Origin: Candidatus Daviesbacteria bacterium
GTDB taxonomy: Bacteria; Patescibacteriota; Microgenomatia; Daviesbacterales; UBA10151
DNA length: 64,000 nucleotides
NCBI GenBank assembly: GCA_016184225.1
Contig: JACPDA010000004.1
Span: 134,800-198,799, forward strand
Direction: 5' to 3'
This document shows, piece after piece, positions 10,694 through 54,326 of this stretch. The notes under the pieces were generated by a model. The model was not told the origin of the DNA, did no database searches, and saw only the letters and a list, made by a program, of their open reading frames with translations. The position numbers and the translations under genes were made by a program. How positions within the stretch are numbered: position 1 is the stretch's first letter; each line of letters begins with the position of its first letter.

Positions 10694-13009
10694 TTAGCCT
10701 CGACTATCTTCCGGCCATTGAGTTACCATGATCGATTTACCCTTATGAGGCAGTTTTTGCCAGAGTTCTTCTGTCAGAAATGGCATGAATGGATGCAGTA
10801 GCTCCAAAGAGGTTTTCAAAACATGCTCCAAAATCGGTTGAGTTTCAGTTCGTCTGGCTTTTGATTTTTCAATATAGACATCAGCAAATTCATGCCAGAT
10901 GAATTCATAAAGAGATTCAGTTGCCAAATGAAGCTGGAAACTTTCCAGGTTTTTAGTAACAGATTTTATCGTCTTGGTTAATTCATCCATGATCTTTTTG
11001 TCATCAGGATGAGTAGTGTCATTCTGGGGAGCGTTAGCGACTCCAGAATCTAGAGTAGGATTCTGGTCCTCGCCAGAATGACGTGTTGTGCCCTCCGGCT
11101 TGAGCTCAATTATGAATCTATAAATATTGCGCAGTTTGGTACCAAAATTACGGAAGTTTTTACACCGCTCATCCATTTGCTGCCTGGAAGTCCGTCCGTC
11201 CCGGCCGGGAATGGAATAGCCATACAGAGCCATCCTGGTAGCATCAACTCCCCACTGGGCCACCAAATCATAAGGGCTGATGCCATTACCCAAAGACTTG
11301 GAAAACTTTCTGCCCTGGATATCTCTTAGCATGCCATGGAAGAACATGTTTTTAAAGGGAATTTCATCCTTGAACCAAAGTCCCAGCATAATCATCCGGG
11401 CTATCCATAAAAACTTGATTTCCGGGGCTGAAGTTTCAAAATCCCAAGGAAAATATTTTTTAAGTTCTTTGGTTTCCTCCGGTTTATCCTGAGCGAAGTC
11501 GAAGGACCAGCCTAAAGTAGCCATCGGCCAAAGCCCGGAAGAAAACCAGGTATCCAGAACTTGTTCATCCTGCACCCAATGCTTCTCCCCGCAGGTTTGG
11601 CAGTTTTTACCAGGTTCTTCAAGGGAGATAACCATATCTTTAAGACCGTCAGGTCGCAAGCTTTGCTTATCCTTGCCTACTAAATGATTAGGATTGCACT
11701 TCTCACAGTACCAAACCGGGATCCGGTGTCCCCACCAAAGAGAACGGGAAATTGACCAGTCATGAATTTCTTTTAACCAGTTACCCAATATTTTTTGGTA
11801 ATTTTTTGGCAGAAAATTAATCCGCCTTAAGTTTTTTAAGGCTTTTTCTGCTAAAGGCGCCATTTTGACAAACCACTCCTCAGAAATCAGCGGTTCGATG
11901 GTAGTTTTGCACCTTTCACAAACAGGAACCGAATGGGTATAGTCTTCCTCTTTTTCAATGGCCCCAACGCTTTCTAACTCCTCCACGGCTTTTTGTCGCG
12001 CCTCGGCAATTTTTAAGCCTGCTAGATTTTTTGCCAGTTCAGTCATCCGGCCGGTTTTATCAATGGCATGTAAAATTGGTAGGTTGTGATCTTTCCCTAT
12101 TTCATAATCTAAGGGGTCGTGGCCAGGTGTGATCTTTAAGGCTCCGGTGCCGAAACCCTTGTCTACCCGTTTATCTTCAAAAATTGGGGTCTTATTGCCG
12201 TTTAAGGGATTAAGAGCGTTTTTACCGACAAATTGGTTAAATTTGGGATGCTTGGGGTAGACGGCAATGCCGGTATCGGCATAAATTGTCTCGGGACGGG
12301 CTGTAGCAATGGTAATAAAGTCATTTGTCATGCTGGCTTGTCCAGCATCTTTCTGAGATTCTGGAGTCGCTTCGCTCCCCAGAATGACACTTTCATTTTT
12401 GATTTGATACCTGACAAAATATAGTTTTTCTTTTCTTTCCTGGTATTCCATTTCCAAATCTTCAATGGCTGTAGCATCTTTGGGACACCATTGGACAATG
12501 TAGGCTCCTTTATACAAGAGGTCCTGATCCCAAAAAGTTTTAAACTCAGCCAGGACTGCTTTTTGAACCTGGGGGTCCAGGGTAAAAACTTCTTTTGACC
12601 AGTCAGCCGAGATGCCCATTAAGTCCCAAGTTTTATGAAAAGAGTTGTAGACTTCTTCTTTAAATTGCCAGGCGCGTTTGAGCCAATCTTCCCGCCCTAA
12701 CTTTTGTTTTGATAATCCTTCTTTTTCCAGGATTTTATTAAAAGTGCCTTCAAAGAGGATTCCGGCATGGTCCACTCCTGGTAAAAGCAGGACGTCATGC
12801 CCCTGCATCCTCTTAAATCGGGCAATGGCGTCCATAATAGAGTGTTCCATGGCATGGCCTAAATGGAGTTCCCCGTTCACATTAGGTGGAGGCATTAGCA
12901 GGGAGTAGGGCTTTTTGTCTGAGTCAGGGTTGGCAGCAAACAACCCTTCTTTTTCCCAAAACTGGTACCACTCACTTTCAGTTTCTTCCTGATTTTGAGT
13001 CTTTGCCAT
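10694..13009 (-). CDS. valS: Valine--tRNA ligase
   Basis: Class I aaRS HIGH motif (PPPNVNGELHLGHAMEH) and KMSKS motif (KFSKSLGN). ValRS-type editing region contains WFSSGLWPMATLGW. Start MAKTQNQ chosen inside the tool ORF 10694-13087. Carries two in-frame palindromic insertions. Confidence 0.85.
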   Translation of the reverse strand: MAKTQNQEETESEWYQFWEKEGLFAANPDSDKKPYSLLMPPPNVNGELHLGHAMEHSIMDAIARFKRMQGHDVLLLPGVDHAGILFEGTFNKILEKEGLSKQKLGREDWLKRAWQFKEEVYNSFHKTWDLMGISADWSKEVFTLDPQVQKAVLAEFKTFWDQDLLYKGAYIVQWCPKDATAIEDLEMEYQERKEKLYFVRYQIKNESVILGSEATPESQKDAGQASMTNDFITIATARPETIYADTGIAVYPKHPKFNQFVGKNALNPLNGNKTPIFEDKRVDKGFGTGALKITPGHDPLDYEIGKDHNLPILHAIDKTGRMTELAKNLAGLKIAEARQKAVEELESVGAIEKEEDYTHSVPVCERCKTTIEPLISEEWFVKMAPLAEKALKNLRRINFLPKNYQKILGNWLKEIHDWSISRSLWWGHRIPVWYCEKCNPNHLVGKDKQSLRPDGLKDMVISLEEPGKNCQTCGEKHWVQDEQVLDTWFSSGLWPMATLGWSFDFAQDKPEETKELKKYFPWDFETSAPEIKFLWIARMIMLGLWFKDEIPFKNMFFHGMLRDIQGRKFSKSLGNGISPYDLVAQWGVDATRMALYGYSIPGRDGRTSRQQMDERCKNFRNFGTKLRNIYRFIIELKPEGTTRHSGEDQNPTLDSGVANAPQNDTTHPDDKKIMDELTKTIKSVTKNLESFQLHLATESLYEFIWHEFADVYIEKSKARRTETQPILEHVLKTSLELLHPFMPFLTEELWQKLPHKGKSIMVTQWPEDSRG
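11018..11082. mobile_element. MITE-like GTCATTCTGG...CCAGAATGAC element inserted in-frame in valS
   Basis: Two hairpins: GTCATTCTGG-loop-CCAGAATC and GATTCTGG-loop-CCAGAATGAC. Translated as ...DSGVANAPQNDTTHPDD... inside ValRS. Confidence 0.75.
12321..12388. mobile_element. Second GTCATT...CCAGAATGAC hairpin element in-frame in valS
   Basis: GTCATTTGTCATGCTGG..CCAGCATC + GATTCTGG..CCAGAATGAC. Inserted peptide ESVILGSEATPESQKDAGQAS lies between conserved ValRS blocks. Confidence 0.7.
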
Positions 13010-13723: not shown

Positions 13724-14818
13724 TCAATAGGCCAGTGAAAGGTTGGGGTCAGCCTGGAAGGTTAAAGGATTAACTGGGTTGTAGTTAAATATGGCGGCAG
13801 TAGCAATCATGGCAGCATTGTCAGTACATAAATTTGCACTGGGAATGCGCAAGTTAATCGTTAATCGTTTAAGATCGTCAGATTGCAAGCTCTGCTTATC
13901 GTTTATCGTTTTTTTAAACTCAGAAACAAGTTTTTGGTTGGCAGCCACACCGCCGGCTACTATAATTTGCTTAATTTTATACTTTTGGACAGCTTGAATA
14001 GTTTTGGCAACTAATACATCAACAATAGCTTGTTCAATGGCAGCAGCTAAATCGCATTTCACCTTCGAGGTGTAGCTTCTTTTTTTCACCTCGAAGGTGT
14101 GGATTAAGTTTGCTACTGCTGTTTTTAAACCGGAAAAGGAAAAGTCAAAGTCTTTGGAGTTGATCATGGGTCTAGGCAGATCAAACTTTGAGGCGTCTCC
14201 ACGTGTGGCTAACTTAGCAATCTCCGAGCCTCCGGGGTAAGGTAGGCCTAAAAGTCTGGCACATTTGTCAAAACATTCCCCGGCTGCATCATCTCTGGTG
14301 CCACCCAGATATTCATACTTACCATGGTTTTTAAAAAGTACAAGATCAGTATGGCCACCGGAAACCAGCAGGCCCAGGCAGGGGAATTTTGGAATTACAC
14401 CTTCCAGGTGGTGTTGCGCCTGCGGCACACCTGGAAGGTGATCTGTAATCCAATTAGCGTAAAAGTGTCCGATCAGGTGGTTAATGGGAATTAGAGGCTT
14501 ACTCCAGATTGTAGCCAGAACTTTGGCAGTTTCAACTCCAACTAAGAGGGAGCCGATTAATCCCGGTCCATAAGTTACAGCGATGGCGTCGATATCCTGT
14601 TGCCTGTGGCCTGAAGCCTGCAAACTTTCTTCTATTACCGGAATAATAGCTTTAATTTGTTCCCGGGCAGCCTGTTCAGGAATGACGCCGCCATATTTAG
14701 CCTGTAAGCTAGCCGAGGATGCTACCACATTGGACAAAATCCTTACTCCGCTTTCGGTCTTTTGTACTACTGCAGCTGCTGTTTCATCACAAGAAGTTTC
14801 TATCCCAAGTATTATCAT
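13724..14818 (-). CDS. tsaD: tRNA N6-adenosine threonylcarbamoyltransferase TsaD (Kae1/Gcp)
   Basis: N-terminus MIILGIETSCDETAAAV. ASKHA fold and metal-binding histidines (HLIGHFYAN). Carries in-frame repeat insertions (palindrome CACCTTCGAGGTG...CACCTCGAAGGTG at ~14077-14105; TAATCGTT repeats at ~13858-13905). Confidence 0.85.
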   Translation of the reverse strand: MIILGIETSCDETAAAVVQKTESGVRILSNVVASSASLQAKYGGVIPEQAAREQIKAIIPVIEESLQASGHRQQDIDAIAVTYGPGLIGSLLVGVETAKVLATIWSKPLIPINHLIGHFYANWITDHLPGVPQAQHHLEGVIPKFPCLGLLVSGGHTDLVLFKNHGKYEYLGGTRDDAAGECFDKCARLLGLPYPGGSEIAKLATRGDASKFDLPRPMINSKDFDFSFSGLKTAVANLIHTFEVKKRSYTSKVKCDLAAAIEQAIVDVLVAKTIQAVQKYKIKQIIVAGGVAANQKLVSEFKKTINDKQSLQSDDLKRLTINLRIPSANLCTDNAAMIATAAIFNYNPVNPLTFQADPNLSLAY

Positions 14819-15216
14819 TTGGTTATTTTAACAGAGTGTTCTTTTAACCATTTGGAGATCTGTTCAATAGTTAAATTTCCGTTATCTACCCTAATTGCAA
14901 ATTCCACCTCTTTTGTATGATTGTTGGTTAATCTGTATCCATTTTTCCATAGGAATAAACCTGCAGAGGTTAAAGCAGTGCGTTTGTTCCCATCCACAAA
15001 GGGATGGTTTTTCAAAAGAGACTGAAGTAATGCCGCAGCTTTATCAAAGATTGAAAAATAGAGATACTCACCACCAAAAGTTGCCTGGGGTCTGGCTACG
15101 GCAGATTCCACCAAGCCTAAATCTCGTACACCAAAAGAGCCGTCATATCTTTTGACTGCTCTATCATGAATGAATAATACCTGTTGGGTTGTGAGGAAGA
15201 TAATTTTAATTTTCAC
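14815..15216 (-). CDS. doc: Doc/Fic family toxin (death-on-curing)
   Basis: 133 aa. Fic motif HPFVDGNKRTA. Overlaps the upstream AbrB-like gene by 4 nt. Confidence 0.8.
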   Translation of the reverse strand: MKIKIIFLTTQQVLFIHDRAVKRYDGSFGVRDLGLVESAVARPQATFGGEYLYFSIFDKAAALLQSLLKNHPFVDGNKRTALTSAGLFLWKNGYRLTNNHTKEVEFAIRVDNGNLTIEQISKWLKEHSVKITK

Positions 15217-15449
15217 CTATGGGAGAGTTCTTGTAGCACATCTTCATGTTCATTCATAAACTCTTCCACCATTTTGGCGAATTTTTGATCTATACCACTC
15301 AGCTGAATTCTTTTAACCGGTTTGAGTAACAAACCTTCCTTAGTTTCTTTCCACTCCACTTTTGAACCATCTCTAATAGAGAGTTGATGAGCATATGTTT
15401 TTGGGACTGTGACAGCTAAAGAATTGCCGTTTTTAAATACTTTTCTCAT
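15213..15449 (-). CDS. AbrB/MazE/SpoVT-family antitoxin (Phd-like partner of Doc)
   Basis: Swapped-hairpin motif VFKNGNSLAVTVPK. Start MRKVFKNG chosen inside the tool ORF 15213-15521; TATAAT lies about 20 nt upstream. Confidence 0.6.
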   Translation of the reverse strand: MRKVFKNGNSLAVTVPKTYAHQLSIRDGSKVEWKETKEGLLLKPVKRIQLSGIDQKFAKMVEEFMNEHEDVLQELSHR

Positions 15450-15528
15450 GGTTCGACTTCGCTCACCATTATTATACCATAATTGTACTGACAATGTACT
15501 GACATAATTAACATGGTACAATCAGTAT

Positions 15529-19432: not shown

Positions 19433-20419
19433 TTAGGGTAGTTTTAATTCTCCCCCAAAATTTTCCTGGTATCTTTTCCGAAACTCTTCAATTGTGAAAG
19501 TGTGATTAGTTGTACCATATTTTTCAATGGCGTAACAAGCAGCAATAGACCCCATTTGGGCGCAAACTTTCAAGTCTAAATCTTTGGTAAAGCCGGTTAA
19601 AAAGCCGGCCCGATATGCATCTCCGGCGCCGGTGGGATCCACCACTTGATTGAGTTTTCCAGCTTTAATTGACCACCTTCCAGGCAAAGACACCTCGGGG
19701 GTGGGCTTTGACTCCCCCGAGGTGGATATAGTTTTTCCTGTTTGGATGGTTGAGCCTTTTTCACCTAGGGTAGTAATCAGGATTTTAACCTGGTTTAACA
19801 GTTGTTCGTCATCCAGCATCAGTTTTTCTTTCAAAAGAGCAATTTCATAATCATTACCGATTAAAATTTCAGCCCCAGTTAGCATTTCCCGGAGGTCCCC
19901 CGGAGATAAGGCCGGCAGCTGCATGCCGGGGTCCAGCATATAAGGGATTTTTAAGCTTTGGCATTGCTGAGTGAGTTTCACCATAGCCTGGGGGTTGTTG
20001 GGAGAAATTACCACAAAATCAGTGGTGATGCCTTTTAGGGATAACTGAGAAGCATAGTCCATGGCTCCGGGATAAAAGGCGCTAATTTGATTATCAACTT
20101 TGTCAGTCATGATAAAAGCCGAAGAAGTTAAATTGTTTTGGGCGGTTTGAATTTTGGAAATATCCACTCCGGCTTTGACCAGAAACTGGGCATACTCAGT
20201 AAAATCCACCCCGGCCATGCCAACTATACCCACAGGAGTTTTTAGCAAACTTAAATTATAGGCAATATTGCCGGCTGTGCCGCCTTTTTGTTTGGTTAAA
20301 GTGTTAACTAAAAAGGATAAATTGATCTGGTGGATTTTATCCGGCATGATGTGGTCGGAAAATTTGCCCGGATAATCCATGATATGATCAAAAGCGAGTG
20401 AGCCGGTAACTGTGATCAT
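19433..20419 (-). CDS. PfkB-family carbohydrate/nucleoside kinase (possibly adenosine kinase)
   Basis: C-terminal PfkB signature DPTGAGDAYRAGFLTG. Adjacent to ahcY, so an adenosine kinase role is plausible. Confidence 0.7.
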   Translation of the reverse strand: MITVTGSLAFDHIMDYPGKFSDHIMPDKIHQINLSFLVNTLTKQKGGTAGNIAYNLSLLKTPVGIVGMAGVDFTEYAQFLVKAGVDISKIQTAQNNLTSSAFIMTDKVDNQISAFYPGAMDYASQLSLKGITTDFVVISPNNPQAMVKLTQQCQSLKIPYMLDPGMQLPALSPGDLREMLTGAEILIGNDYEIALLKEKLMLDDEQLLNQVKILITTLGEKGSTIQTGKTISTSGESKPTPEVSLPGRWSIKAGKLNQVVDPTGAGDAYRAGFLTGFTKDLDLKVCAQMGSIAACYAIEKYGTTNHTFTIEEFRKRYQENFGGELKLP

Positions 20420-23575: not shown

Positions 23576-23589
23576 GAGCTATCAGCCTT

Positions 23590-23653
23590 CAGTCATCAGT
23601 CGTCAGACAATTTGTTTTCTAGTCTGATAGCTGACAGCTGAAGACTGACGACT
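23590..23653. repeat. Palindromic GTCGTCAGAC/GTCTGACGAC-type repeat in the 5' leader of the SBP gene
   Basis: CAGTCATCAGTCGTCAGAC ... GTCTGATAGCTGACAGCTGAAGACTGACGACT. The same unit recurs in-frame in sbcD at 44930-44956. Confidence 0.7.
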
Positions 23654-26189: not shown

Positions 26190-27211
26190 ATTAGTGGCGG
26201 TAAATTTATGAGTTGGACTTCGGGTTCTAAGGTAATGCCGAATTTTTCTTTCACTTTTTCAGCATAAATCTTGGCCAAATTATGAAACGCTTTGGCTGTT
26301 CCAGTGCCTTGATTTATAAACAGATTGGCATGGTAAGAAGCTATTTCTATACCATCTGATTTTTGGCCTTTGGCCCCGACTTCTTCCAGTAGTGCTCCGG
26401 CAGGAAGTTTTCCAAAAACTATTTTTTCCTGAGGGATATTTTTTAAAATTTCCGGAGAAACCTCCGAAGCCACTAAATTCTTGAAGAAACTGCCCGGGCA
26501 TTTAGTGCCGGGGGGGTATTTTATTAATCTTTTTGATAAAACATCCTGAGCTTCTTCTGCAAGGATTTTTGGGTCCCCCGGTTCCAATTGAAAAATGACT
26601 TCTAAAATAGTGTCTTTGGTTTTTTTAAAAATACTGTCCCGGTAGCTAAATTGACAAGCTTCTTTGGCCATTGTCATTCTGGGGAGCGGAGCGACACCAG
26701 AATCAGATTCTGGACAAGTCCCGATGGAATCGAGGACACTCGACAGAGTCGGTGCCAGAATGACAACTTCTGTTATATGGTCGGAGATTGTCTGGCCATA
26801 TGCCCCGGCATTGCCATAAATTGCCCCTCCAACAGTACCTGGAATACCGGTCAGCTTTTGTAAACCGGAGAGCCCATGATTAATGGCGTAATCAACCAGG
26901 TCTTGTAGTGGAGTGCCGCTTTTAATACTCACCATTACACCCCCGAGGTGTAACCGCATTTCTTCACCTCGGGGGTGAGTTGCTGAAATTCCGGTTATCT
27001 CATTCTTAATCACTAAACACTCTACCCCTTCATCAGCCACCAATAAATTACTGCCGCCGCCTATTATCAGATATGGCAGTGCCTGATCTTTAGCGTATTG
27101 GATAGCTTCTGTTAGCTCTTTTTGTGTGTTAACCTCTACAAATTTTTTAGCCGGGCCACCGATAGATAAAGTGGTTATGTTTTTTAATGGATAGTTTTCT
27201 TGAAATTGCAT
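26186..27211 (-). CDS. murB: UDP-N-acetylenolpyruvoylglucosamine reductase
   Basis: FAD-binding N-terminus (GGPAK..., IIGGGSNLL). Carries two in-frame palindromic insertions. Confidence 0.85.
   Translation of the reverse strand: MQFQENYPLKNITTLSIGGPAKKFVEVNTQKELTEAIQYAKDQALPYLIIGGGSNLLVADEGVECLVIKNEITGISATHPRGEEMRLHLGGVMVSIKSGTPLQDLVDYAINHGLSGLQKLTGIPGTVGGAIYGNAGAYGQTISDHITEVVILAPTLSSVLDSIGTCPESDSGVAPLPRMTMAKEACQFSYRDSIFKKTKDTILEVIFQLEPGDPKILAEEAQDVLSKRLIKYPPGTKCPGSFFKNLVASEVSPEILKNIPQEKIVFGKLPAGALLEEVGAKGQKSDGIEIASYHANLFINQGTGTAKAFHNLAKIYAEKVKEKFGITLEPEVQLINLPPLI
26673..26764. mobile_element. GTCATTCTGG...CCAGAATGAC MITE-like element in-frame in murB
   Basis: GTCATTCTGG..CCAGAATC + GATTCTGGACAAG...CCAGAATGAC. 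The right hairpin (GATTCTGGACAAG) is identical to the right end of the GIY-YIG element at 32025-32046. Inserted peptide LAPTLSSVLDSIGTCPESDSGVAPLPRMT. Confidence 0.8.
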
Positions 27212-39509: not shown

Positions 39510-40400
39510 TCAGAAAGCAAATATTTTCTTAGCGTTTGTGCTGGTTTGTTCTGCTACTTCTGCAAATGATATTCCTTTTAAATCGGCAATAAGCTCCGCA
39601 ATTTCTTTAACCGCCGAGGGTTCGTTTCGCTGGCCTCTTTTACCTTGGGGAGCTAAAAAGGGACAATCTGTTTCCAGTAGAATTTTGTTAAGCGGAAGAA
39701 TTTTAGCAGCTTCTCTTAAGTATTCATTCTTGGGATAGGTGATATTGGCTGCAAAAGAAACGAATAAGTTGGTAGCAGGTAGTAGGTAGCTGGTAGTATG
39801 GGGAAGCCCACTATAACAATGTAAGATGGCAGGTTGGTCGCCGACCATTTTCAGCGCTTCATTCCAAGCCTCGGAGTTGGTGGGGTTTTTTGACCGGTCA
39901 TCCCGGCAATGAATAACTGCCGGCAGATTTAGTTTTTTTGCCAAATCAATGTGAGCCTGAAAAAGCATCCTTTGTAAATCTTTAACCTGTTGGGTGGTAA
40001 TAGAAGGTGGAATGAATCCGGGATTGCTTTCAAAAAAGAAGTCCAGGCCACACTCACCTATACCTACAACTCTTTCAGGATTGCTGCGGTAGATTTTTTC
40101 CAGTTGTGCAATATCTTTTGCCAGATCATTTTGCACATTTGACCCACGGTCGGAGGGCATTTGTGATTGTGAATATTTGGTAGATTCATGTGGGTGAATG
40201 CCGATGGTGGAATAAACTGATAAACCTGCCGGCCACTTAGTGTTTGTGGCTTGGTCCAAAGCCTTTTGACTTGTTTCAACATCCACGCCGATATTGATGA
40301 TTGTAGAAACTCCGGCATCAACAGCCCTTTGAATCATTTCATAAAAATCCTCTTTGTATGAATCCCAGTAAAGATGGGCATGTGTGTCAATTAAATTCAT
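39510..40400 (-). CDS. tatD: TatD family hydrolase (Mg-dependent DNase)
   Basis: N-terminal IDTHAHL; HxH/metal ligands throughout. Contains an in-frame GGTAGNN tandem repeat at 39771-39801. Confidence 0.85.
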   Translation of the reverse strand: MNLIDTHAHLYWDSYKEDFYEMIQRAVDAGVSTIINIGVDVETSQKALDQATNTKWPAGLSVYSTIGIHPHESTKYSQSQMPSDRGSNVQNDLAKDIAQLEKIYRSNPERVVGIGECGLDFFFESNPGFIPPSITTQQVKDLQRMLFQAHIDLAKKLNLPAVIHCRDDRSKNPTNSEAWNEALKMVGDQPAILHCYSGLPHTTSYLLPATNLFVSFAANITYPKNEYLREAAKILPLNKILLETDCPFLAPQGKRGQRNEPSAVKEIAELIADLKGISFAEVAEQTSTNAKKIFAF

Positions 40401-41854
40401 ATTCGGGCCTGCCCGCCAATTGCTTCGCCGCTAGGCGATGGCAGGCGGGGGAAAAGTGACGGGGCAGATTTAATTCGCCGGCTGGCGAATTGTTTTAAGA
40501 TTTTTTCTGCAGTTTCTGGTAAAAAGGGTTGTAAGTTAAAGGCAATTTGCTGGATTCTTATAACGAGGTTTTCCAGTACAGGTTTGGCTTCTTCGTTGGA
40601 TAACTCCCAGGGTTTTTTAATATTAATTTCTTTATCTGCCTCAGTAATCCTAGTCCTAATCCAAAACAGTGCTTCATTAAATTTAAACTCAGAGAGTAAT
40701 TTTTCCAGATCCTGATCAAATTCTGTGGGAATGGTACCAGCCTTTATTTCATGTTGTTCACAGAGTCTAGCGACCCTGGCCACTAAATTCCCTAAACCAT
40801 TTGCCAGGTCAGCATTATAAACTTCTTTAAACCGCTCATTTGTAAAATCGCCGTCAGCATCAATCGGGATTTGGGAGAGCATGAAGTAGCGCAAGGGTTC
40901 TAGTCCGAATTTTTCAACTACATCCTGGGGTGAGATAACATTGCCCAAAGACTTACTAATCTTTTCTCCTTTTAAATTAACAAATCCGTGGATTAAAATT
41001 TGCTTTGGCAGTGGCAATCCTGCAGACAACAACATAGCTGGCCAATAAACCGTATGGAATCTGTTAATATCTTTACCAATAATGTGTAAATCTGCCGGCC
41101 ACCACTTTTGAAACTTTTCCTCATCCCAGCCAAATCCAATTCCGGTCATATAGATCGCTAAAGCATCAAACCAAACATAAATTTTCTGGCTTGGGTTTTC
41201 CGGAACCGGTACTCCAACACCTCTGGAGCGTTCATTTGATCGGGAAATACTAAAATCCTCCAAGCCGGATTTAATAAAAGATAAAACCTCGGATCTTTTG
41301 TTGGCTGGAGCAATTTTTAATTCGTCGCTTTCTATTAGTTGAATTAACTTTTCTTGATATTTTGATAACTTAAAAAAATAGTTTTCCTCTTTTATGCGTT
41401 CCGGTTTGGTGTGGTGGATGGAACAAAGCCCGTCAACCAGCTCTGTTTCTGTCTTGAAAGATTCGCAGCCAATGCAATATAAACCCCCATATTCTTTTTT
41501 ATAAATATCGCCATTTTCCTCACATAATTTCCATAATTTTTGCACTCCGGGCCAGTGTTTTTTTTGATCAGAGCCTCGTTGGAAAACATCCAGGTGCACT
41601 TTTAAAAATTCGAAAGTTTGATGCCAGATTTTGGAATTGCGGTCTAAAAATTCCTGGATAGGAAGACCTTCTTTTTCAGCGGCCTGGACATTTTTTAGCG
41701 CATTTTCATCTGCTCCGGAAAGAAGCAAAGTTTCATCTTCTTTTAGTTGGTGGTATTTTCTAACAGTATCTGCTTGAAAATATTCCAGTGAGTGGCCAAC
41801 ATGCGGCAAGCCGTTAACATAGGGTATAGCTGTTGTAAGGTAGAATTTGTTCAT
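40397..41854 (-). CDS. metG: Methionine--tRNA ligase
   Basis: HIGH motif (PYVNGLPHVGHSLEY), KMSKS motif (KISKSLGN) and Zn-knuckle cysteines (CIGCESF...CSIHH). The C-terminal 20 residues are encoded by a GC-rich palindrome at 40407-40490. Confidence 0.85.
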   Translation of the reverse strand: MNKFYLTTAIPYVNGLPHVGHSLEYFQADTVRKYHQLKEDETLLLSGADENALKNVQAAEKEGLPIQEFLDRNSKIWHQTFEFLKVHLDVFQRGSDQKKHWPGVQKLWKLCEENGDIYKKEYGGLYCIGCESFKTETELVDGLCSIHHTKPERIKEENYFFKLSKYQEKLIQLIESDELKIAPANKRSEVLSFIKSGLEDFSISRSNERSRGVGVPVPENPSQKIYVWFDALAIYMTGIGFGWDEEKFQKWWPADLHIIGKDINRFHTVYWPAMLLSAGLPLPKQILIHGFVNLKGEKISKSLGNVISPQDVVEKFGLEPLRYFMLSQIPIDADGDFTNERFKEVYNADLANGLGNLVARVARLCEQHEIKAGTIPTEFDQDLEKLLSEFKFNEALFWIRTRITEADKEINIKKPWELSNEEAKPVLENLVIRIQQIAFNLQPFLPETAEKILKQFASRRIKSAPSLFPRLPSPSGEAIGGQARI

Positions 41855-42341: not shown

Positions 42342-44528
42342 TTAAACCCCAACCACCTCAAAAGTAGAACCTCCTGAGTTCTTGGAAACCTCAATTCTGA
42401 CCGGGAATTCTTCTTTTAACTCTTCTATATGAGTAATCACTAAAATCTTTTCAAAATCATTTTTAATGGCATCTATTGCTTCTATTAACCTGGCTCTCCC
42501 TGGTGCATCTTGAGATCCAAATCCTTCATCAATGACCAAAAATTGTAATTTTGCCCCGGCCCGGTGGGTCAGCAGTTTGGAAATGGCCAGCCGGATACAA
42601 AAATTAACCCGGAAAGCCTCACCTCCCGAGTACATCTCATAAGGCCGCTCACCCATCTCATCAGAAATAATGATGTCTAGTGTTTCTATAATGCCTTTTT
42701 CACCGCCGGCAAGTTTAGTTTTGGTTTCCTTTTGGGTTTCGAAACTGACTTTCATACGGCCTTCGGTAAGCTTTTCCAGCAATTTATTTGTTTCATCCTC
42801 AATTTCCGGGATGGCTGCTTCTATAATCATGGCCTGGATGCCTTTTTTGCCGAATGCCAAAGCCAGCTCTTCAAAAGTTTCTCTTTCCTCCGTTAGGGTA
42901 ATTTTTTCTGCTGACTTTTGTTTCGAGAGATTTTCCATTTGGGCTGTCCGGGAAATTAATTCATTAATCTGTCCCAAAATTCCGCGGGCCGCTTTTTCTT
43001 CTTCACGGATACCGGTAAGTTGATTTTCCGTACCGGTGATTTCCTGGTTTAAATTAATAATTTTTTCTGATAAATCAGGTAGTTTAGTTAATTCCTCCGA
43101 TATTCTATCAACCTGCAACTTTTTATTTTGAAACAGGATCCTCATTTCTAAAACTACTTTTTCCTCTGTTTGCAAAGTGGCTTGAATTGTTAGCTTTTCA
43201 TCATTTTGTTTTTGGATTTCTTCTGAATCCTTAAGTTGCAACAGGATTTGTTGGTATTTTTCAGAATCAAAATAGATGGCTTTTAATTGATTTTCTAAAT
43301 CAGCAATTGTTTGTTCTTCCTTGAAAAAATTAATTTTCTGGAGATCTTTTTTCAGATTTGTGATTTGGGTTGTTAATTGACTGTGCACATGTGATTTTTC
43401 AGCTTTGCCGATTTCCTGTCCGCAAGTCGGACATTTGGCTCCTGTTTTTGATGATGCACTAAGTTGGGCAGTCAGTTTATCTATTTCTTTTTGGATGCTT
43501 TGTGTCTGTTGTTTTTTGACATTAATTTCTCCGTTTGTAACGGATAATTTATTTTTTATTTCCAGTTGTTCATGTCTGATTTTATCCATTTTTTCTTTTT
43601 CCAGTTGCAGGGATTTTAAATTCTGCAATTGCCCGCTGACTTCCTGTAATTTTTGGAGTTGTAGCCCAAGAGAGTCAATTTTACTTTTGCGGTTTTTTCC
43701 CTGAGTGATGATTTCTTCTAATTCTTTTTTATTTTCCAAATAATTTTGCTCTAATTTTTTTCTTTGTTCTGAAGCCAAATTTAGTGCTTCCCGCTCCTCC
43801 CGCAAGGTTTTTAACCTTTCTTCTGAGGCTTTAATTTGTGTTTCAACTTCGGTAATTTTATTTTCGGCTGCCTTTTTCTTTGCTGAACGGTCTTCTTTTT
43901 GGGACAACTCCGCTTCTATTTCCAGGAGTTGATAATCCAGCAGTTGCAGTTTTGTCAGCGCTGCCTTGCTTTTTTCTTTGGCTTTTTCCTCTAAGAGATC
44001 GTAGTGATCTAAGCCTAAAATATCGGCCAAAATCTTTTTCCGCTCAGTCGGGCCTTTGGTGGTAAATTCATCAGCATGGCCTTGACGAAGATATGCAGAG
44101 TTGGTAAATGTCTCAAAGCTTAAATGCAGGGCATCTATTATTTTTTGTTGGGTAGCTTTGATGGTGCCTTCTGTCAGATTATGTCCTGAGCGAACAGAGT
44201 GAGTTGAAGGATTACTACTCCAGAATTCCAGCGCTGTTTGACCGCCGCCTTTTGTTGAACGACTTCTTTTAATAGTAAAGTTATGGCCGTCCAGCTCGAA
44301 TTCAAACTCAGCAGACATATTAACTGCACTTGCATGGATCAGGCTGTCGGAAGAATCCCCGGCCCGGGAAGTACCCCAAATGCACCAGGTGATAGCATCA
44401 AGCAAAGATGACTTACCGGCGCCGTTGAGCCCGGAAATGGCAGCCAGCTTAAATTTTGTAAAATCCAGCTCAGGTGGGCTTTGACCGTAACTTGTAAAAT
44501 TGGATAATGTTAGTTTAACCGGTATCAT
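42342..44528 (-). CDS. sbcC: SbcC/Rad50-family ATPase
   Basis: Walker A ISGLNGAGKSSLLDAI; long coiled coil; zinc hook CPTCGQ; C-terminal Walker B/D-loop FLVIDEGFGSQD. Confidence 0.85.
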   Translation of the reverse strand: MIPVKLTLSNFTSYGQSPPELDFTKFKLAAISGLNGAGKSSLLDAITWCIWGTSRAGDSSDSLIHASAVNMSAEFEFELDGHNFTIKRSRSTKGGGQTALEFWSSNPSTHSVRSGHNLTEGTIKATQQKIIDALHLSFETFTNSAYLRQGHADEFTTKGPTERKKILADILGLDHYDLLEEKAKEKSKAALTKLQLLDYQLLEIEAELSQKEDRSAKKKAAENKITEVETQIKASEERLKTLREEREALNLASEQRKKLEQNYLENKKELEEIITQGKNRKSKIDSLGLQLQKLQEVSGQLQNLKSLQLEKEKMDKIRHEQLEIKNKLSVTNGEINVKKQQTQSIQKEIDKLTAQLSASSKTGAKCPTCGQEIGKAEKSHVHSQLTTQITNLKKDLQKINFFKEEQTIADLENQLKAIYFDSEKYQQILLQLKDSEEIQKQNDEKLTIQATLQTEEKVVLEMRILFQNKKLQVDRISEELTKLPDLSEKIINLNQEITGTENQLTGIREEEKAARGILGQINELISRTAQMENLSKQKSAEKITLTEERETFEELALAFGKKGIQAMIIEAAIPEIEDETNKLLEKLTEGRMKVSFETQKETKTKLAGGEKGIIETLDIIISDEMGERPYEMYSGGEAFRVNFCIRLAISKLLTHRAGAKLQFLVIDEGFGSQDAPGRARLIEAIDAIKNDFEKILVITHIEELKEEFPVRIEVSKNSGGSTFEVVGV

Positions 44529-45727
44529 TATTCTAATAACTGGGCAGCATATTTTTCCAAAGCTTTTTGTTTTGTAACCGGATATTTTTTGGCTTCAAAA
44601 TATTTTTTTAAAGCGGCAATCGGAGTCAGGGTCTCCACATCCTTACCAAAATCTATTTTTTCCCGTTCCAGCCGTTCAACATTTCTGGAAATACCGGCCA
44701 CTAAATGGGCTAAAGAGAGAGCTTTTTTTATTTTATCCATCTCGATATCTTGATCCAGTCCGGCAGGGATATTAATGACTAGCCTGATAATTTTATCTGC
44801 CAGGTCGTGTTTTTTGATTTCATCCAGTATAGTTTGGGTGGGGTCAGGATCTGCACTTTTGAGGTTAACAGTGATAGTTAAAAACTGCCGGGCATTGGTA
44901 GAGATAAACTGATAACTTGTTTGATATTTGTCTGACGTCTGACGACTGACGACTGAAAGCTCTACTAAACAAATTCCTTTTTCCTCTTTTTCCTCCCCGA
45001 AATCTATCCGTTGTGGCGAGCCGGAATAAACAATTAATGGTCCGCCCGCTTCGCGAGGCGAGCCCGCCGGCGGATTGGAAAGAACTTGGTGTTTGTGGAT
45101 ATGGCCCAAGGCCACATAATTTAGCCTTTTGTCTTGTAGCAAGGGTAGGGGAAGGGTAATATCATTCCCAATTGCCAGACCTTTTTCACTTCCGAACTGC
45201 GCCCCCACTATTTCAGCATGGGACAGTAAAACAGCAGGGGAATCAGGAGTAATTTTGTCATAGAGTAATTTTAGTTTTTCAGCCACGGTTTTGTAGTCGT
45301 TTTTATGTAACCAGGGTAGGGTGACTACTTGTAAGTTTCCGGATTTGGTGGGAATTTGCAAAATTTCCGGATGTCTGGAAACCCAGACATTATCTATCTC
45401 CAAGGCTGAATAGATATCCAAAGTATTGGCTTTGCCTTCTGCATTGGGGGTGTCGTGATTTCCCACTACCAAAACAACAGGGATTTTTTTGGCCAGTTTA
45501 GCAATCCTTTCACCAAAACCCCGCTGTTGGGTGGGGTTGGGATCACGGGTTTTATAGGCATCACCGGCAAAGATCACTGCATCGACATTTTCTTTAAAAG
45601 CAGTTTCTACAATAAAATCAAAAGTATTGAAAAAATCCAGCAGCCTGGTGGAAAGTCCGGTTTCCGGATCCAATTTAGAGTAATTTTCCATGCCAATATG
45701 AAGGTCAGAAAAGTGAAGTAGTTTCAT
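44528..45727 (-). CDS. sbcD: SbcD/Mre11-family nuclease
   Basis: Calcineurin-like phosphoesterase motifs MKLLHFSDLHIG, GDAYK, GNHD, GHIH. Carries in-frame repeat insertions at 44930-44956 and 45030-45070. Confidence 0.85.
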   Translation of the reverse strand: MKLLHFSDLHIGMENYSKLDPETGLSTRLLDFFNTFDFIVETAFKENVDAVIFAGDAYKTRDPNPTQQRGFGERIAKLAKKIPVVLVVGNHDTPNAEGKANTLDIYSALEIDNVWVSRHPEILQIPTKSGNLQVVTLPWLHKNDYKTVAEKLKLLYDKITPDSPAVLLSHAEIVGAQFGSEKGLAIGNDITLPLPLLQDKRLNYVALGHIHKHQVLSNPPAGSPREAGGPLIVYSGSPQRIDFGEEKEEKGICLVELSVVSRQTSDKYQTSYQFISTNARQFLTITVNLKSADPDPTQTILDEIKKHDLADKIIRLVINIPAGLDQDIEMDKIKKALSLAHLVAGISRNVERLEREKIDFGKDVETLTPIAALKKYFEAKKYPVTKQKALEKYAAQLLE

Positions 45728-45765: not shown

Positions 45766-46923
45766 ATGGCCATGTTTAAGCCTAGAATAAACAATCTTAG
45801 ACACAAACTTCTAGAAGAAAAACTGGACGGCGTTTTAATTTCTTCTGTTTCCAATATTAGCTATCTAACTGGTTTTACCAATTTTTCGGAAAAAGAGCGG
45901 GAGGCGTATATTTTTATTGGCAGCGATTTTGCCTACATTATTACTGATGCCAGGTATTCAGAGGCAGTAAAAAAACAGGTTCCACACTTAACCCTTTTTG
46001 AAAGAAGTCACAATAAACCAACCAAGACTCTATTTAAAAAACACCAAAAAGAGATAAAACAGCTAGGGATTGAAGAAGATAATTTAACAGTCTTAGAGCA
46101 CAAGTCTTTGAGCAAACATTTTAAAAAAATAAAACATTTTGATGTTTCCGGTTTAAGAAGTATTAAAAATGAAAAAGAAATCAGCAAAATAGAGAAGGCT
46201 TGCCGAATTGGGGATTTGGCTTTCGATTATATTGTAAAAAAGATTAGGACTGGAGTAACTGAAAAACAGATGGCAGAGGAGTTGGAAAATTTCATCAGAA
46301 GTAAAGGTGCTAGGTTTTCTTTTCCGCCGATTATAGCTTTTGGTAAAAATTCCAGTGTGCCGCATCATCAAACAGGTCCTTCGACTCTCTTCGTTCGCTC
46401 AGGACGAGAAGGACTAATTATCCTTCTCGATTTTGGTGTTAAGGTTGATAATTATTGTTCTGATATGACCAGGACTGTATTTTTCGGAAAACTAACTGGT
46501 AAACAAAAAGAAATTTATGAAGTGGTTTTGGCAGCCCAACAAAAAGCTGTGGGTTATATCAATTCTGTCCTTCGACTTCGCTCAGGATCTTCGACTAGAT
46601 CATTAAAAGCTTCTGAAGTGGACAAGGTTGCCAGGGATTATATTGTTTCCAAAGGTTATCCCACTATTCCCCATTCCTTGGGGCATGGAATCGGTTTGGA
46701 AGTGCACGAGCATCCCAGTCTATCACCCAAAAGCAGGGAAATTTTACAAGAAGGGATGGTTTTTTCGATTGAACCGGGAATATACATTCCTGATTTTGGC
46801 TCGCCTCGCTCGACGCGAGTCGAAGCGGGCGGAGTCAGGATTGAAGATTTATTTGTTTTGAAAGACAACGGGTTAAGGCAACTTACCAACTCGCCAAAGG
46901 GAATAATTTCTGTTAACATTTAG
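45766..46923 (+). CDS. pepP: Xaa-Pro aminopeptidase / M24 family peptidase
   Basis: M24 pita-bread fold motifs (HGLGHGIGLEVHE, SIEPGIY, GGVRIED). Three GC-rich palindromic in-frame insertions. Confidence 0.8.
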   Translation: MAMFKPRINNLRHKLLEEKLDGVLISSVSNISYLTGFTNFSEKEREAYIFIGSDFAYIITDARYSEAVKKQVPHLTLFERSHNKPTKTLFKKHQKEIKQLGIEEDNLTVLEHKSLSKHFKKIKHFDVSGLRSIKNEKEISKIEKACRIGDLAFDYIVKKIRTGVTEKQMAEELENFIRSKGARFSFPPIIAFGKNSSVPHHQTGPSTLFVRSGREGLIILLDFGVKVDNYCSDMTRTVFFGKLTGKQKEIYEVVLAAQQKAVGYINSVLRLRSGSSTRSLKASEVDKVARDYIVSKGYPTIPHSLGHGIGLEVHEHPSLSPKSREILQEGMVFSIEPGIYIPDFGSPRSTRVEAGGVRIEDLFVLKDNGLRQLTNSPKGIISVNI

Positions 46924-51610: not shown

Positions 51611-52348
51611 TTACAGTAAGTAAATATCTACAAATTTTGCTCTCCAGCCTGCAGTTCTTGCATCATCAAAGCCTAAGTCAATAATATTCCCTTTAATGGA
51701 TCCGCCGGTGTCTCCGGCAATGGCTGAACCATATCCGGGAATATAAACTTTTGATCTCAGCTTGATAACTTTGGGATCAACTGCGATCACCCCCTTGCCG
51801 GCCCGCATGCCGATGGCAGTCCATTCGTTGCAACCAGGACAGCGGGAGTCATAATGAGTGGCATAAACTCTCATTTTTTTCCAATATTTAATTTCTCCAT
51901 CCGGAGTGTCCAGTGTTCTCCAGACTATTTTTGTCCCCCGCAAGATCTTTTTGTCTTTAGCCGGAGTTGTTTCAACAGAAATAAGTTCCCTGGAGTACTC
52001 TTCCTGGTCCACCTCGGGGGAGCCAGAGCTCACCCCCGAGGTGTTTGCCGGTTTGTAGTATGTCACTTTAAATATCTTTATTTTTTTGCCATCCTCTCCT
52101 TCTTCCAAAATTTTTTCTTCCCCGGCTTCGGTTTCCGGGTCGTCCTGGTAGGTAACCTTTTTAGGCAGGATCTCTGTTTCTTCCTGCAACTTTTCCGTAA
52201 AAGAAGACTCTGTAGTAATAGGTTGGTTAACTGGCAAAGTTTCCGTGGGGGAAGGGGTGGATTGCCCTAGAACTGATGGGGTTTGGAAAATACTTTTAGC
52301 AAAAAATGTTAAGGATAGGATTAATATAATTCCTAAGTATTTCTCCAT
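51611..52348 (-). CDS. 3D-domain protein (MltA/RpfB-like cell-wall binding or lytic)
   Basis: C-terminal 3D domain VYATHYDSRCPGCNEWTAIGMRAGKGVIAVDPKVIKL...GDTGGSIKGNIIDL. Carries an in-frame CACCTCGGGGG...CCCCCGAGGTG palindrome at 52008-52045. Confidence 0.75.
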   Translation of the reverse strand: MEKYLGIILILSLTFFAKSIFQTPSVLGQSTPSPTETLPVNQPITTESSFTEKLQEETEILPKKVTYQDDPETEAGEEKILEEGEDGKKIKIFKVTYYKPANTSGVSSGSPEVDQEEYSRELISVETTPAKDKKILRGTKIVWRTLDTPDGEIKYWKKMRVYATHYDSRCPGCNEWTAIGMRAGKGVIAVDPKVIKLRSKVYIPGYGSAIAGDTGGSIKGNIIDLGFDDARTAGWRAKFVDIYLL

Positions 52349-52349
52349 G

Positions 52350-54326
52350 TTAAATTCTTAACCACTCATCTTCCTCAACTGGACTGGAATTATCTATTTC
52401 ACCAAGATCATCAACATCTTTGTAGTTTGCATTGCTGGAAATTAAACTCTCTGGAATATCTGATAAGAATCTAGATACCAGATTATTGCTTCTTTGGCCA
52501 AAATACAACCTTTGCCTGGCATAGGTTAAATATAGCTTTTCTTTAGCCCGGGTAATGCCGACGTAACAAAGCCGTCTTTCTTCTTCTAACTCCCTGACAT
52601 CCAACATGGCCCGGGAATGGGGGAATAAGCCTTCTTCCATACCCACTATAAAAACTACCGGGAACTCCAAACCTTTGGCGGAGTGGAGAGTCATTAAGGT
52701 AACTGCATCCTTTTTCGGTGTGTCGGTGTGTCGGTGTGTCGGTGTGTCAGATGCTTCCACTAAGGCCACATTTTCCAAAAATTGGGTTAAATCAGGAAAT
52801 TCTTCTGCCACTGAACGGAGTTCCTTAACGTTTTCCATCCGCATTTTGCCTTCTTCGCTGCTGTCATCTAGGTATTCAAGATAACTTGTGACTTGTAGGA
52901 TTTTATCCAGTAGCTCCAGGGTAGTATAAGGCAAATTGTCATTGCGAGGAGCCGTAGGCGACGCCGCAATCTGGGTAGGATTATTGTCTGGACTAGATTG
53001 CTTCGCTTCGCTCGCAATGACGTTTTGGAGTTCCATGATTTTTGAAAGCCTGCCTTTGCCAATTTTTTCTGCTCTTTTTAGGGAAACAGAATCTTTGGGG
53101 TTTTGTAGCAAACGAAGATAAGCCAGGACATCTTTAATCTCTTTTCTGGCATAAAAGCTGACACCACCAACTAACTGGTAAGGCATGCCTACTTTTAGGA
53201 ACTGCTCTTCCAAGCTTCTGGATTGGGCATTAGTACGGTATAAAATGGCAAAGTCAGATAGTTTTGTTGCACCCTTGGGGTGTGGTATTAAGGGATGAGT
53301 AATAGTATGTAAAATAAACAAGGCTTCTTCAACTTCGTTTCTTACCTCAACTACTTCAATTTTTTCGCCGCCGTCTTTATTGGTCCAAAGTTTTAAGATG
53401 GGATGGGATTTATTTTTGGAAATAATTGCATGTGCCGCATCCAGGATATTTTGGGTGGAGCGATAGTTTTGTTCCAAGTTAAAGATCTTAGCAGTTGGGT
53501 AATCTTTTTGGAAATTAACAATGTTGCGAAAATCAGCTCCCCGGAAGGAATAAATTGATTGGCTGGCGTCTCCCACCACACAGATATTTTTGTGGCGGTT
53601 GCTTAAGTATTTACTGATTAAATATTGGGCCGGGTTAGTATCCTGGTATTCATCTATTAATATGTAACGGAATTGAATTTGGTAGCGGACAAGAATGCTG
53701 GGGTCAGTTTGGAATAATTTAATGACCCCGAGTAGTAGGTCATCAAAATCCAGGGCATGGTTTCGCTCCAAAATCTTCTGGTATTCTAAATATATTTTGG
53801 CTACAGTTTCCTGAAAATAACCTCTGGCATATTGGGGGTATTCCAAAGCAGAAATCAGTTCATTCTTGGCTCCTGATATGTTATTCCGGACAGCAGCAGG
53901 AGAAGTTTTCTGAGTCGGGATATTTAGATTTGCCATGGCTTCTTTAATAGCATCCAAAGCATCCCCTTCGTCATAGATGGCAAACCCCGGGGGGAGTCCC
54001 AGGATCCGACCCTCACGGCGGAGAATCCTGGCGCAAAAACTGTGGAATGTACCCATTATTGGAAGCTGGAAATTAGAAGCTGGAGGCTGGAAATTCAGAA
54101 GTTTTAAGATCCGATCCCGCATCTCGCCGGCGGCTTTGTTAGTGAACGTGACCATAAGAATACTTTCTGGTGGTACACTTTTTTCCTGGATTAAATAAGC
54201 CACCCGATGGGTTAGGGCTTTGGTTTTACCGGAACCGGCCCCGGCCAAAATTAAAACAGGACCCTCGGTGGCCTGAACTGCCTGTTTTTGGATGGGGTTT
54301 AAGTCATCTAAGAGGGAATTGGGCAT
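52350..54326 (-). CDS. UvrD/PcrA-family ATP-dependent DNA helicase
   Basis: Motif I GAGSGKTKALTHRVAYLI, motif II DEYQDTN, motif VI YVGITRAKEKL. Carries an in-frame GTCATTGCGAG element (52938-53021) and a TGTCGGTG x4 repeat (52716-52748). Confidence 0.85.
   Translation of the reverse strand: MPNSLLDDLNPIQKQAVQATEGPVLILAGAGSGKTKALTHRVAYLIQEKSVPPESILMVTFTNKAAGEMRDRILKLLNFQPPASNFQLPIMGTFHSFCARILRREGRILGLPPGFAIYDEGDALDAIKEAMANLNIPTQKTSPAAVRNNISGAKNELISALEYPQYARGYFQETVAKIYLEYQKILERNHALDFDDLLLGVIKLFQTDPSILVRYQIQFRYILIDEYQDTNPAQYLISKYLSNRHKNICVVGDASQSIYSFRGADFRNIVNFQKDYPTAKIFNLEQNYRSTQNILDAAHAIISKNKSHPILKLWTNKDGGEKIEVVEVRNEVEEALFILHTITHPLIPHPKGATKLSDFAILYRTNAQSRSLEEQFLKVGMPYQLVGGVSFYARKEIKDVLAYLRLLQNPKDSVSLKRAEKIGKGRLSKIMELQNVIASEAKQSSPDNNPTQIAASPTAPRNDNLPYTTLELLDKILQVTSYLEYLDDSSEEGKMRMENVKELRSVAEEFPDLTQFLENVALVEASDTPTHRHTDTPKKDAVTLMTLHSAKGLEFPVVFIVGMEEGLFPHSRAMLDVRELEEERRLCYVGITRAKEKLYLTYARQRLYFGQRSNNLVSRFLSDIPESLISSNANYKDVDDLGEIDNSSPVEEDEWLRI
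52716..52748. repeat. TGTCGGTG octamer-like tandem repeat in-frame in uvrD
   Basis: CGGTGTGTCGGTGTGTCGGTGTGTCGGTGTGTC, read as DTPTHRHTDTP. Confidence 0.8.
52938..53021. mobile_element. GTCATTGCGAG...CTCGCAATGAC MITE-like element in-frame in uvrD (84 nt)
   Basis: GTCATTGCGAG..CGCAATC + GATTGC...CTCGCAATGAC. Inserted peptide SEAKQSSPDNNPTQIAASPTAPRNDNL. Confidence 0.8.

Follow-up and report, generated by a model that had tools for sequence, protein, structure and literature searches.

A 64-kb stretch of the genome of Candidatus Daviesbacteria (contig JACPDA010000004.1, hereafter the window), a bacterium of the Microgenomates branch of the Candidate Phyla Radiation (CPR, or Patescibacteria), carries families of short GC-rich repeats inside its protein-coding genes, in frame with their hosts. 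One of these families, here called type 1, is built from 13-nt CACC-N5-GGTG units set as inverted pairs. We read type 1, with a probability of about 0.72, as elements like REPs (repetitive extragenic palindromic sequences) and REPINs (inverted REP doublets), tied to a CPR clade of transposases of the RAYT (REP-associated tyrosine transposase) type, placed in coding space and kept when in frame. Two lines of evidence carry this reading. The same motif occurs in unrelated genes whose counterparts in relatives have empty sites, which argues for an invasion at the DNA level and not for ancestral protein sequence. Units of the same kind flank RAYT-like genes in CPR relatives, so that type 1 is best read as REPIN-like.

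Inverted CACC-N5-GGTG units inside coding sequence

The window has a GC content of 40% and is about 94% coding by a greedy map of open reading frames (ORFs). It holds five type 1 doublets, one singlet and one remnant arm (Table 1), all within coding sequence. Nine copies of the unit CACCNNNNNGGTG are present where 0.34 are expected, and none of 100 shuffles reaches 9. A perfect-stem census of the window identifies the doublets as five GC-rich hairpins of 34-43 nt, with arms of 11-13 nt around spacers of 12-17 nt. Folded as single-stranded DNA and compared with 200 shuffles each, they score z = -4.8 to -9.6, and no shuffle folds equally well. Within a copy, each arm is the exact complement of the other, and between copies the central five bases covary (TTCGA/TCGAA, TTCCA/TGGAA, TCGGG/CCCGA). 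Both arm orders are found (compare 26938 with 19691 and 52010). An Rfam scan of the window matches no family.

An initial annotation made from the letters alone had described three types of in-frame GC-rich palindrome. All the sites it listed exist, within a few bases of the positions it gave and inside intact ORFs, and Pfam confirms its gene identities: TsaD, MurB, a protein with G5 and 3D domains, a Metallophos/SbcD nuclease, the M24 peptidase PepP and methionyl-tRNA synthetase (MetRS). Further hosts recognized by Pfam are a PfkB kinase, UvrD, a class I tRNA synthetase and a Wzy_C protein. The description as palindromes holds for type 1 only; type 2 has weak dyad symmetry and type 3 is no palindrome. 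The annotated type 1 copies (tsaD site 1, murB and the 3D gene) stand, but the second tsaD doublet, the pfkB doublet with its remnant arm and the uvrD singlet had been missed.

Filled and empty sites were compared at the DNA level with syntenic Daviesbacteria relatives (L001, L104-L109) of 75-85% protein identity. Records L001, L004, L109 (assembly CAZAZW01) and other metagenome-assembled genomes of the third-party annotation (TPA) division are titled "uncultured Gammaproteobacteria"; several such records are syntenic with the window at 75-85% protein identity, and the label looks wrong. At this distance most sites are empty, among them those in sbcD, the 3D gene, sbcC, murB and valS, site 1 of tsaD, and sites 1 and 2 of pepP. 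The insertions measure 18-43 nt and encode 4-18 residues, a lower range than the 8-20 residues first given, and their local GC content of 62-72% bears out the GC richness claimed for them. No insertion scored against an empty site contains an in-frame stop, and all have lengths divisible by 3. The idea of invasion is supported by the empty sites at many loci, but not all of it is recent: the window has pepP site 3 and the metG tail in common with L001 and the 3D insert in common with L104, and many Daviesbacteria have an older variant at the pfkB site. Since identical elements recur at orthologous sites in independent assemblies, assembly chimeras, the other outcome against which the initial annotation had asked for a check, are excluded.

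The individual type 1 sites show presence, absence and decay. The TsaD loop at 14060 holds other insertions in L108 and L109. The tsaD doublet at 14398, whose 17-nt spacer is a small hairpin in itself, is absent in both and corresponds to a 14-residue gap against E. coli TsaD (4ydu); gaps against that structure at the tsaD inserts are 14 and 5 residues. At the pfkB site, L109 is empty and L108 keeps only a GAGGTG remnant after a 27-nt deletion, while L107 has a full older variant, CACCTTCCAGG-AGCCAAAGCCCA-CCTGGAAGGTG, which is read as LPDSPSRSQSPPGRW in many Daviesbacteria homologues. The murB element is absent in L108 and L109 and is represented in L107 by a single unit, CACCCTTGGGGTG, a second instance of decay. 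At the 3D-gene site no element is present in L001, L105 and L106; the L104 copy matches that of the window in its arms (22/22) and differs from it at 3 of the 12 spacer positions.

Insertions fall in loops, as the initial annotation had suggested that alignments might show, and appear as gaps in solved homologues. In alignments with 3q6d and 1wy2 the three pepP inserts face gaps of about 5, 11 and 10 residues, and all three lie in coil in an AlphaFold model of PepP (mean predicted local distance difference test score, pLDDT, 81.9), insert 3 at pLDDT <50. Among 42 pepP and 30 pfkB homologues the same loops are sporadically occupied by related or different elements, which marks these sites as hot spots. 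Junction peptides predicted from the inserts include NTSGVSSGSPEV, GSPRSTRVEAGG and STSGESKPTPEV. For the 34-nt type, 20 of 23 distinct coding sites are read as TSG…PEV (P = 4.6e-6), and the stop-containing frame is never used. Compound and nested insertions are also seen: SKASLRV is repeated in tandem over 23 residues in pepP of L104 (P0009), a type 2 element stands between type 1 arms in L005 (880-985), and the pfkB homologue P0184 has a type 1 copy with an LPAGRQG insert within its spacer.

A scan for the exact 22-nt arm pair, using one genome per species, yields 101 stretches, mostly from CPR Microgenomates and usually within long ORFs. The Microgenomates carriers are Daviesbacteria, Gottesmanbacteria, Curtissbacteria, Levyibacteriota, Woesebacteria, Roizmanbacteria, Chisholmbacteria and WWE3. 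Whole-element types recur among these genomes, including exact 34-mers of the window; the 34-mer of the pfkB doublet is present unchanged in many CPR genomes. In low-GC loci, 59 of 91 type 1 copies lie within ORFs of at least 200 aa. High-GC actinobacterial matches of the scan are likely chance or terminator hairpins and were set aside. Outside the CPR, the Ca. Omnitrophota isolate S014_49 has about 20 loci with the same 11-nt arms (e.g. L027 4340-4422, 6571-6653 and 7267-7349). These copies are intergenic and belong to an 83-nt repeat with a second hairpin that resembles a terminator, and their neighbours include a secretin gene.

Table 1. Repeat elements of the window, with positions counted from its first letter; z scores are from the folding test.
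Type	Host gene	Position	Strand	Sequence	Reading	Remarks
1, doublet	tsaD, site 1	14060..14099		arms CACCTTCGAGGTG + CACCTCGAAGGTG, 14-nt spacer	HTFEVKKRSYTSKV	z = -9.6
1, doublet	tsaD	14398..14440		arms CACCTTCCAGGTG + CACCTGGAAGGTG, 17-nt spacer	HLPGVPQAQHHLEGV	z = -7.4
1, doublet	pfkB-family kinase	19691..19724		34 nt, coding-strand spacer AGTCAAAGCCCA	STSGESKPTPEV	z = -4.8
1, remnant single arm	beside pfkB doublet	19674..19684		CACCTTCCAGG on + strand	PGRW	
1, doublet	murB	26938..26977		reversed arm order CACCCCCGAGGTG … CACCTCGGGGGTG	HPRGEEMRLHLGGV	z = -6.5
1, doublet	G5/3D-domain gene	52010..52043		34 nt	NTSGVSSGSPEV	z = -5.6; net insertion 42 nt
1, singlet	uvrD	53270..53282		unit CACCCTTGGGGTG		
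2	sbcD (focal site)	45044..45061	-	TCGCCTCGCGAAGCGGGC, within NPPAGSPREAGGP		18-nt insertion relative to L104
2	pepP, site 3	46801..46830	+	TCGCCTCGC-TCGACGCGAGTC-GAAGCGGGC	GSPRSTRVEA	30-nt insertion
2-like	MetRS (metG), C-terminal tail	40403..40447	-	LPSPSGEAIGGQAR		42-nt insertion directly before stop codon
3	pepP, site 1	46378..46404	+		PSTLFVRSG	ancestral loop replaced, net +12 nt
3	pepP, site 2	46569..46587	+		LRLRSG	z = 0.1; absent in L001, L104-L106
3	sbcC	44184..44210	-		PSTHSVRSG	27-nt insertion; absent in L001, L104-L106
3	valS-like class I tRNA synthetase	11487..11505	-		SFDFAQD	24-nt insertion; absent in L108, L109

RAYT-like genes flanked by type 1 units

The link to a transposase comes from a WWE3 locus (L050), where a gene at 401-1039 encodes a 212-aa protein that matches the Pfam family Y1_Tnp (E = 5.8e-8, 33 bits against a cut-off of 23). 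Type 1 doublets stand on both sides of this gene, the downstream one reaching across the gene's stop codon and the start of uvrB. The adjoining uvrB has an in-frame type 1 copy, and the spacer of the window's tsaD 14398 doublet recurs in this uvrB with compensated arms. In tblastn searches of the window and relatives with IS200, IS608 and E. coli RAYT queries, this locus was the only match, a weak one. A profile built from 28 homologues has as its best PDB match the E. coli RAYT, TnpArep (4er8, E = 1.2e-4), with the HUH and YIxxNP motifs included in the alignment; an HUH-like motif (HFH) and YIHLNP are invariant in the 28. The profile is required for this match, as a PDB search with the L050 protein as a single sequence finds none. 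The RAYT-like family has 1,785 members at E ≤ 1e-5.

RAYT homologues from Gottesmanbacteria, Woykebacteria and other lineages (L110-L113 among them) are flanked by their own CACC…GGTG variants. Both flanks are available for 72 metagenome RAYT homologues; a CACC…GGTG unit lies within 150 nt of 33 of these, and 23 have one on each side. Unit density is 2.5/kb in the RAYT flanks and 0.05/kb in the rest of those loci, an enrichment of about 50-fold. More distant RAYT homologues have other flanking hairpins. Several of the flanking units are identical to units of the window. Both flanks of a Daviesbacteria RAYT (MBI2021765.1, in L194) carry CACCTTCGAGGTG, the exact arm of the tsaD 14060 doublet, as do units flanking the L120 RAYT; the arm of the tsaD 14398 doublet matches units flanking RAYTs in L110 and L119; and the uvrD singlet unit, the same that occupies the L107 murB site, also flanks a RAYT homologue in L122. 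RAYT homologues are rare, with two (L050 and L081) in about 870 kb searched by tblastn with the L050 protein and with the profile, which fits the single-copy habit of RAYTs. A weak RAYT match upstream of pfkB in L108 has no Pfam support and was rejected.

The units upstream of RAYT genes are often preceded by TTGA, giving TTGACACC (L050 365-372, L110, L112, both flanks in L113, L194 3967-3974). In L110 and L112 the distance from such a unit to the downstream RAYT start codon is about 50 nt. Judged by its sequence, the TTGA-preceded unit might also act as a -35 promoter box of the transposase gene.

Types 2 and 3 and other repeats of the window

Type 2 is defined by TCGCCTCGC…GAAGCGGGC, which sbcD and pepP share (2 matches against 0 expected). 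Its dyad symmetry is weak, with z = -1.5 in sbcD (15 of 200 shuffles fold equally well), -2.65 in pepP and -1.6 in the metG tail. At the sbcD site L104 reads AAT CCG CCG / GCT GGC GGA, while L001, L105 and L106 are without 7 codons. The element falls between GHIH and the next strand, where Thermotoga maritima Mre11 (3qg5) has a 10-residue gap. At site 3 of pepP, where 3q6d and 1wy2 have a 10-residue gap, L104, L105 and L106 carry no insert (TTT / GGC GGA), and the L001 insert has one difference in 30 nt. In scattered relatives the site is filled, with spacers of differing lengths.

The metG element does encode the C-terminal tail of the protein, as initially annotated, and is a loose relative of type 2 only (TCGCCTAGCGGCGAAGC). 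MetRS ends in PRI* in L104, L105 and L106, and L001 has the identical 42-mer (42/42) between different flanks. The metG genes of the window (40397-41854) and of L001 (4782-6248) are 57% identical overall, but are nearly or fully the same over roughly the last 50 residues and the 42-nt tail. The window groups with L105, and L104 with L106. To judge by these alignments, metG looks mosaic, which points to replacement of the gene or to recombination, with a breakpoint close to its 3' end. A small perfect palindrome at 40472-40491, AATTCGCC-GGCT-GGCGAATT, lies inside the range first annotated in metG and is separate from the tail insertion; it is read as FASRRIK where relatives have F-SGxIK.

Type 3, CCTTCGAC…CGCTCAGGA (or CCTTCRAC…CGCTCAGGA), has four copies in the window against 0 expected. 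The two annotated copies in pepP stand, and those in sbcC and valS had not been listed. Three copies fold with z about 0 and the region 46374-46431 with z = -1.9; being no better folded than shuffles, type 3 is a repeat and not a palindrome. Its DNA is read in all three frames (GPST..VRSG, VLRLRSG, SFDFAQD). The element at pepP site 1 is absent in L001 and L104-L106, and scattered relatives are filled at the same site. Types 2 and 3 behave like type 1 in being in frame and present or absent between relatives. They may represent other REP-like families or decayed remnants.

Other repeats share the window with these families. The GTCATT family has eight heads of the form GTCATTSYGRG against 0.12 expected (2177, 11018, 12378, 19354, 19420, 26673, 52938 and 53011). 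Most stand within genes (Wzy_C, valS, murB, uvrD); relatives either do not have the uvrD and murB inserts or have degenerate forms of them. In L129 and L139, RAYT homologues have GTCATT-like hairpins at a distance of 76-170 nt, a weak lead. A 30-nt repeat, AAGCARAGCTTGCRAYCTGACGRTCTTAAA, occurs in valS (11639-11668) and tsaD (13868-13897), two copies against 0 expected. It is read as KQSL(R/Q)(P/S)D(G/D)LK, and L108 and L109 have neither copy. At 23577-23653 and 891-964, inverted arrays are made up of heptamer-like runs (CTGACGA/GTCGTCA, TAGAGTC). One such run in sbcD (44936-44956) stands beside a 7-residue insertion that three relatives do not have and that is shorter in L104. A pair of genes for a Fic/DOC protein and a MazE-like antitoxin directly adjoins tsaD (14815-15521).

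Mechanism, alternatives and known elements

In the reading we favour, the 13-nt CACC-N5-GGTG unit is a small imperfect palindrome, a REP, and two inverted units around a 12-17-nt spacer would form the 34-43-nt hairpin of a REPIN-like doublet. Such doublets are not autonomous; a single-copy RAYT-like Y1 (HUH) transposase would mobilise them in trans, as hairpins of single-stranded DNA, with separate RAYT lineages paired with separate N5 variants. With only about 6% non-coding DNA, a genome such as this offers scant intergenic room, so that most insertions strike coding sequence. If only in-frame, stop-free events in tolerant loops survive, the hairpins would be translated as short hydrophilic peptides (e.g. 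TSGV…SPEV), and later in-frame deletions would reduce some copies to single arms. A broader proposal is more tentative, and we hold it at somewhat less than even odds: that CPR bacteria of the Microgenomates own REPIN-RAYT systems with a minimal 13-nt REP, that these have colonised coding space and re-use permissive loops as a source of loop-length variation, and that the Omnitrophota arms reflect transfer between phyla. At the pfkB, tsaD and pepP sites, variants that are nested or adjacent raise the possibility that elements home to earlier copies.

Several observations weigh against the REPIN-RAYT reading. The window itself has no RAYT gene by tblastn or profile search. Proteins of the L050 type match only one NCBIfam model, that for REP-associated tyrosine transposases (NF047646), and do so at 47-54 bits against a cut-off of 80. 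The heads are CACC and the ends GGTG, with no GTAG or CGTC. The flanks of RAYT genes contain no type 3 matches, and their type 2 9-mer matches are coincidental; the one near the L119 RAYT is an overlap with a type 1 unit. The filled-versus-empty comparisons reveal no consistent target-site duplication or clean target rule. A type 1 flank consensus, A-R-A / R-A, is real, but the GA…GA flanks of the 34-nt type match each other in 14 of 28 copies, against about 12 predicted from base frequencies, which is no more than chance. Several insertions replace host sequence or add bases, as in the 3D gene, where 42 nt accompany a 34-nt element. Sharing is conflicting as well, pepP site 3 and the metG tail going with L001 and the 3D insert with L104, so that repeated gain, precise loss or recombination is needed.

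Some of these points would be expected if no dedicated transposase were involved and quasi-palindromes arose by template switching or snap-back synthesis, to be spread by homologous recombination or gene conversion. Perfect complementarity of type 1 arms within copies with covariation between them, arms better conserved than spacers or flanks (the 3D insert; similarly the metG tail of L001), incongruent presence and absence between sites, the mosaic appearance of metG, the lack of a clean target duplication and the short direct repeats beside type 2 inserts (GGC at pepP, GC(G/T)GGC at sbcD) all fit such an origin. We nevertheless consider it unlikely: the same 34-nt sequence, spacer included, is found in unrelated genes across many CPR classes, and the enrichment of units at both ends of RAYT genes, in lineage-specific variants, is not predicted by it.

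Slightly less probable again is that the elements are retained for host benefit, whether through structures formed in RNA or DNA that serve translation pausing, mRNA stability or protein binding, or through useful surface peptides. Co-option is discussed in the REPIN literature, and the strong reading-frame bias of the 34-nt type, the conservation of arms over long divergence, the persistence of some insertions across many Daviesbacteria and the intergenic Omnitrophota arms beside a terminator-like hairpin could all be so explained. Yet close relatives have the same essential enzymes without the insertions, the same DNA read in different frames and orientations gives unrelated peptides, and copies decay by deletion; the low-confidence coil in the PepP model and the lack of an Rfam match in the window also speak against a function.

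Two further explanations are very improbable. GC-rich "byp" elements of yeast mitochondria offer a model for inserts that stay untranslated, and GC-rich hairpins within essential genes of an AT-rich genome might likewise be removed from mRNA or bypassed by the ribosome, but then neither the restriction of all scored insertions to stop-free multiples of 3 nt nor the avoidance of the stop-containing frame by the 34-nt type would be needed. Artefacts of assembly or binning, which short GC-rich hairpins in a metagenome-assembled source can attract, are equally implausible given the orthologous elements shared with L104 (3D gene) and L001 (pepP site 3, metG) and the occurrence of the motif in 101 stretches from many projects, and ancestral lineage-specific loops are ruled out by repeats common to unrelated genes.

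The REPIN-RAYT reading places type 1 beside systems that are well described. REPINs are inverted REP doublets in two configurations with variable spacers, formed by REP types specific to their single-copy RAYTs (PMC3337134), and described REP superfamilies have GTAG or CGTC heads (PMC3733652). With the REP/REPIN-RAYT systems of Pseudomonas fluorescens SBW25 and E. coli (PMC3116915, PMC3337134, PMC3733652) type 1 shares an over-represented short imperfect palindrome, inverted doublets in both configurations that form hairpins around a variable spacer, and, as seen in relatives, a rare and apparently single-copy Y1/HUH gene flanked by its own unit type in lineage-specific pairing, whose product is structurally closest to E. 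coli TnpArep. It differs from them in its heads, in copies that are mostly intragenic and in frame and not intergenic, in the length of the unit (13 nt) and doublet (34-43 nt, where the SBW25 GI REPIN has about 89 nt), and in a transposase from a distant clade below the NCBIfam cut-off.

Palindromic repeats in frame in housekeeping genes, tolerated in loops and variable between relatives, are likewise known from intragenic REPs, often in DNA repair genes (PMC3733652), and from Rickettsia palindromic elements (RPEs), which are about 150 bp long and in frame in conserved genes (PMC10969869). Repair-gene hosts reported for these two groups are uvrB, UvrD and recBCD; here they are sbcC, sbcD, uvrD and the L050 uvrB. 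By their reported length of about 100-150 bp, with a conserved peptide of tens of residues, RPEs are set apart from the window elements of 18-43 nt and 4-18 residues, and for the latter, relatives have a corresponding RAYT-like gene that bears the same units in its flanks. Bacterial MITEs (miniature transposable elements with inverted repeats) are also small, non-autonomous, hairpin-forming repeats capable of in-frame fusions (PMC10969869), but type 1 shows no consistent target-site duplication in the comparisons made, only a 12-17-nt spacer between its inverted repeats, and a Y1 single-strand transposase, not a DDE enzyme, as its associate. The coding palindromes of Nematomorpha are reported to be perfect inverted repeats of up to 284 bp with both arms translated (PMC6649704); they belong to animal mitochondria and have no known transposase.

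A search of the literature found no report of a REPIN, a RAYT or in-frame palindromic repeats for CPR/Patescibacteria, and a full-text search for the motif sequences gave unrelated primer matches only. Intragenic REPs and RPEs are already known, and what is added here is a very short unit with CACC heads, a distant RAYT clade, a mostly coding distribution and another host group; the finding is an extension and not a surprise. If the REPIN-RAYT reading is true, long-lived partnerships of element and transposase reach into the ultra-small, host-dependent bacteria of the CPR, where in near-fully coding genomes the elements would survive intragenically as translated loops. Differences in length between CPR orthologues are in large part explained by the inserts, which can mislead alignments, homology searches and structure predictions. 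They also offer natural markers, both for strain typing and for the loop positions at which essential enzymes tolerate insertion.

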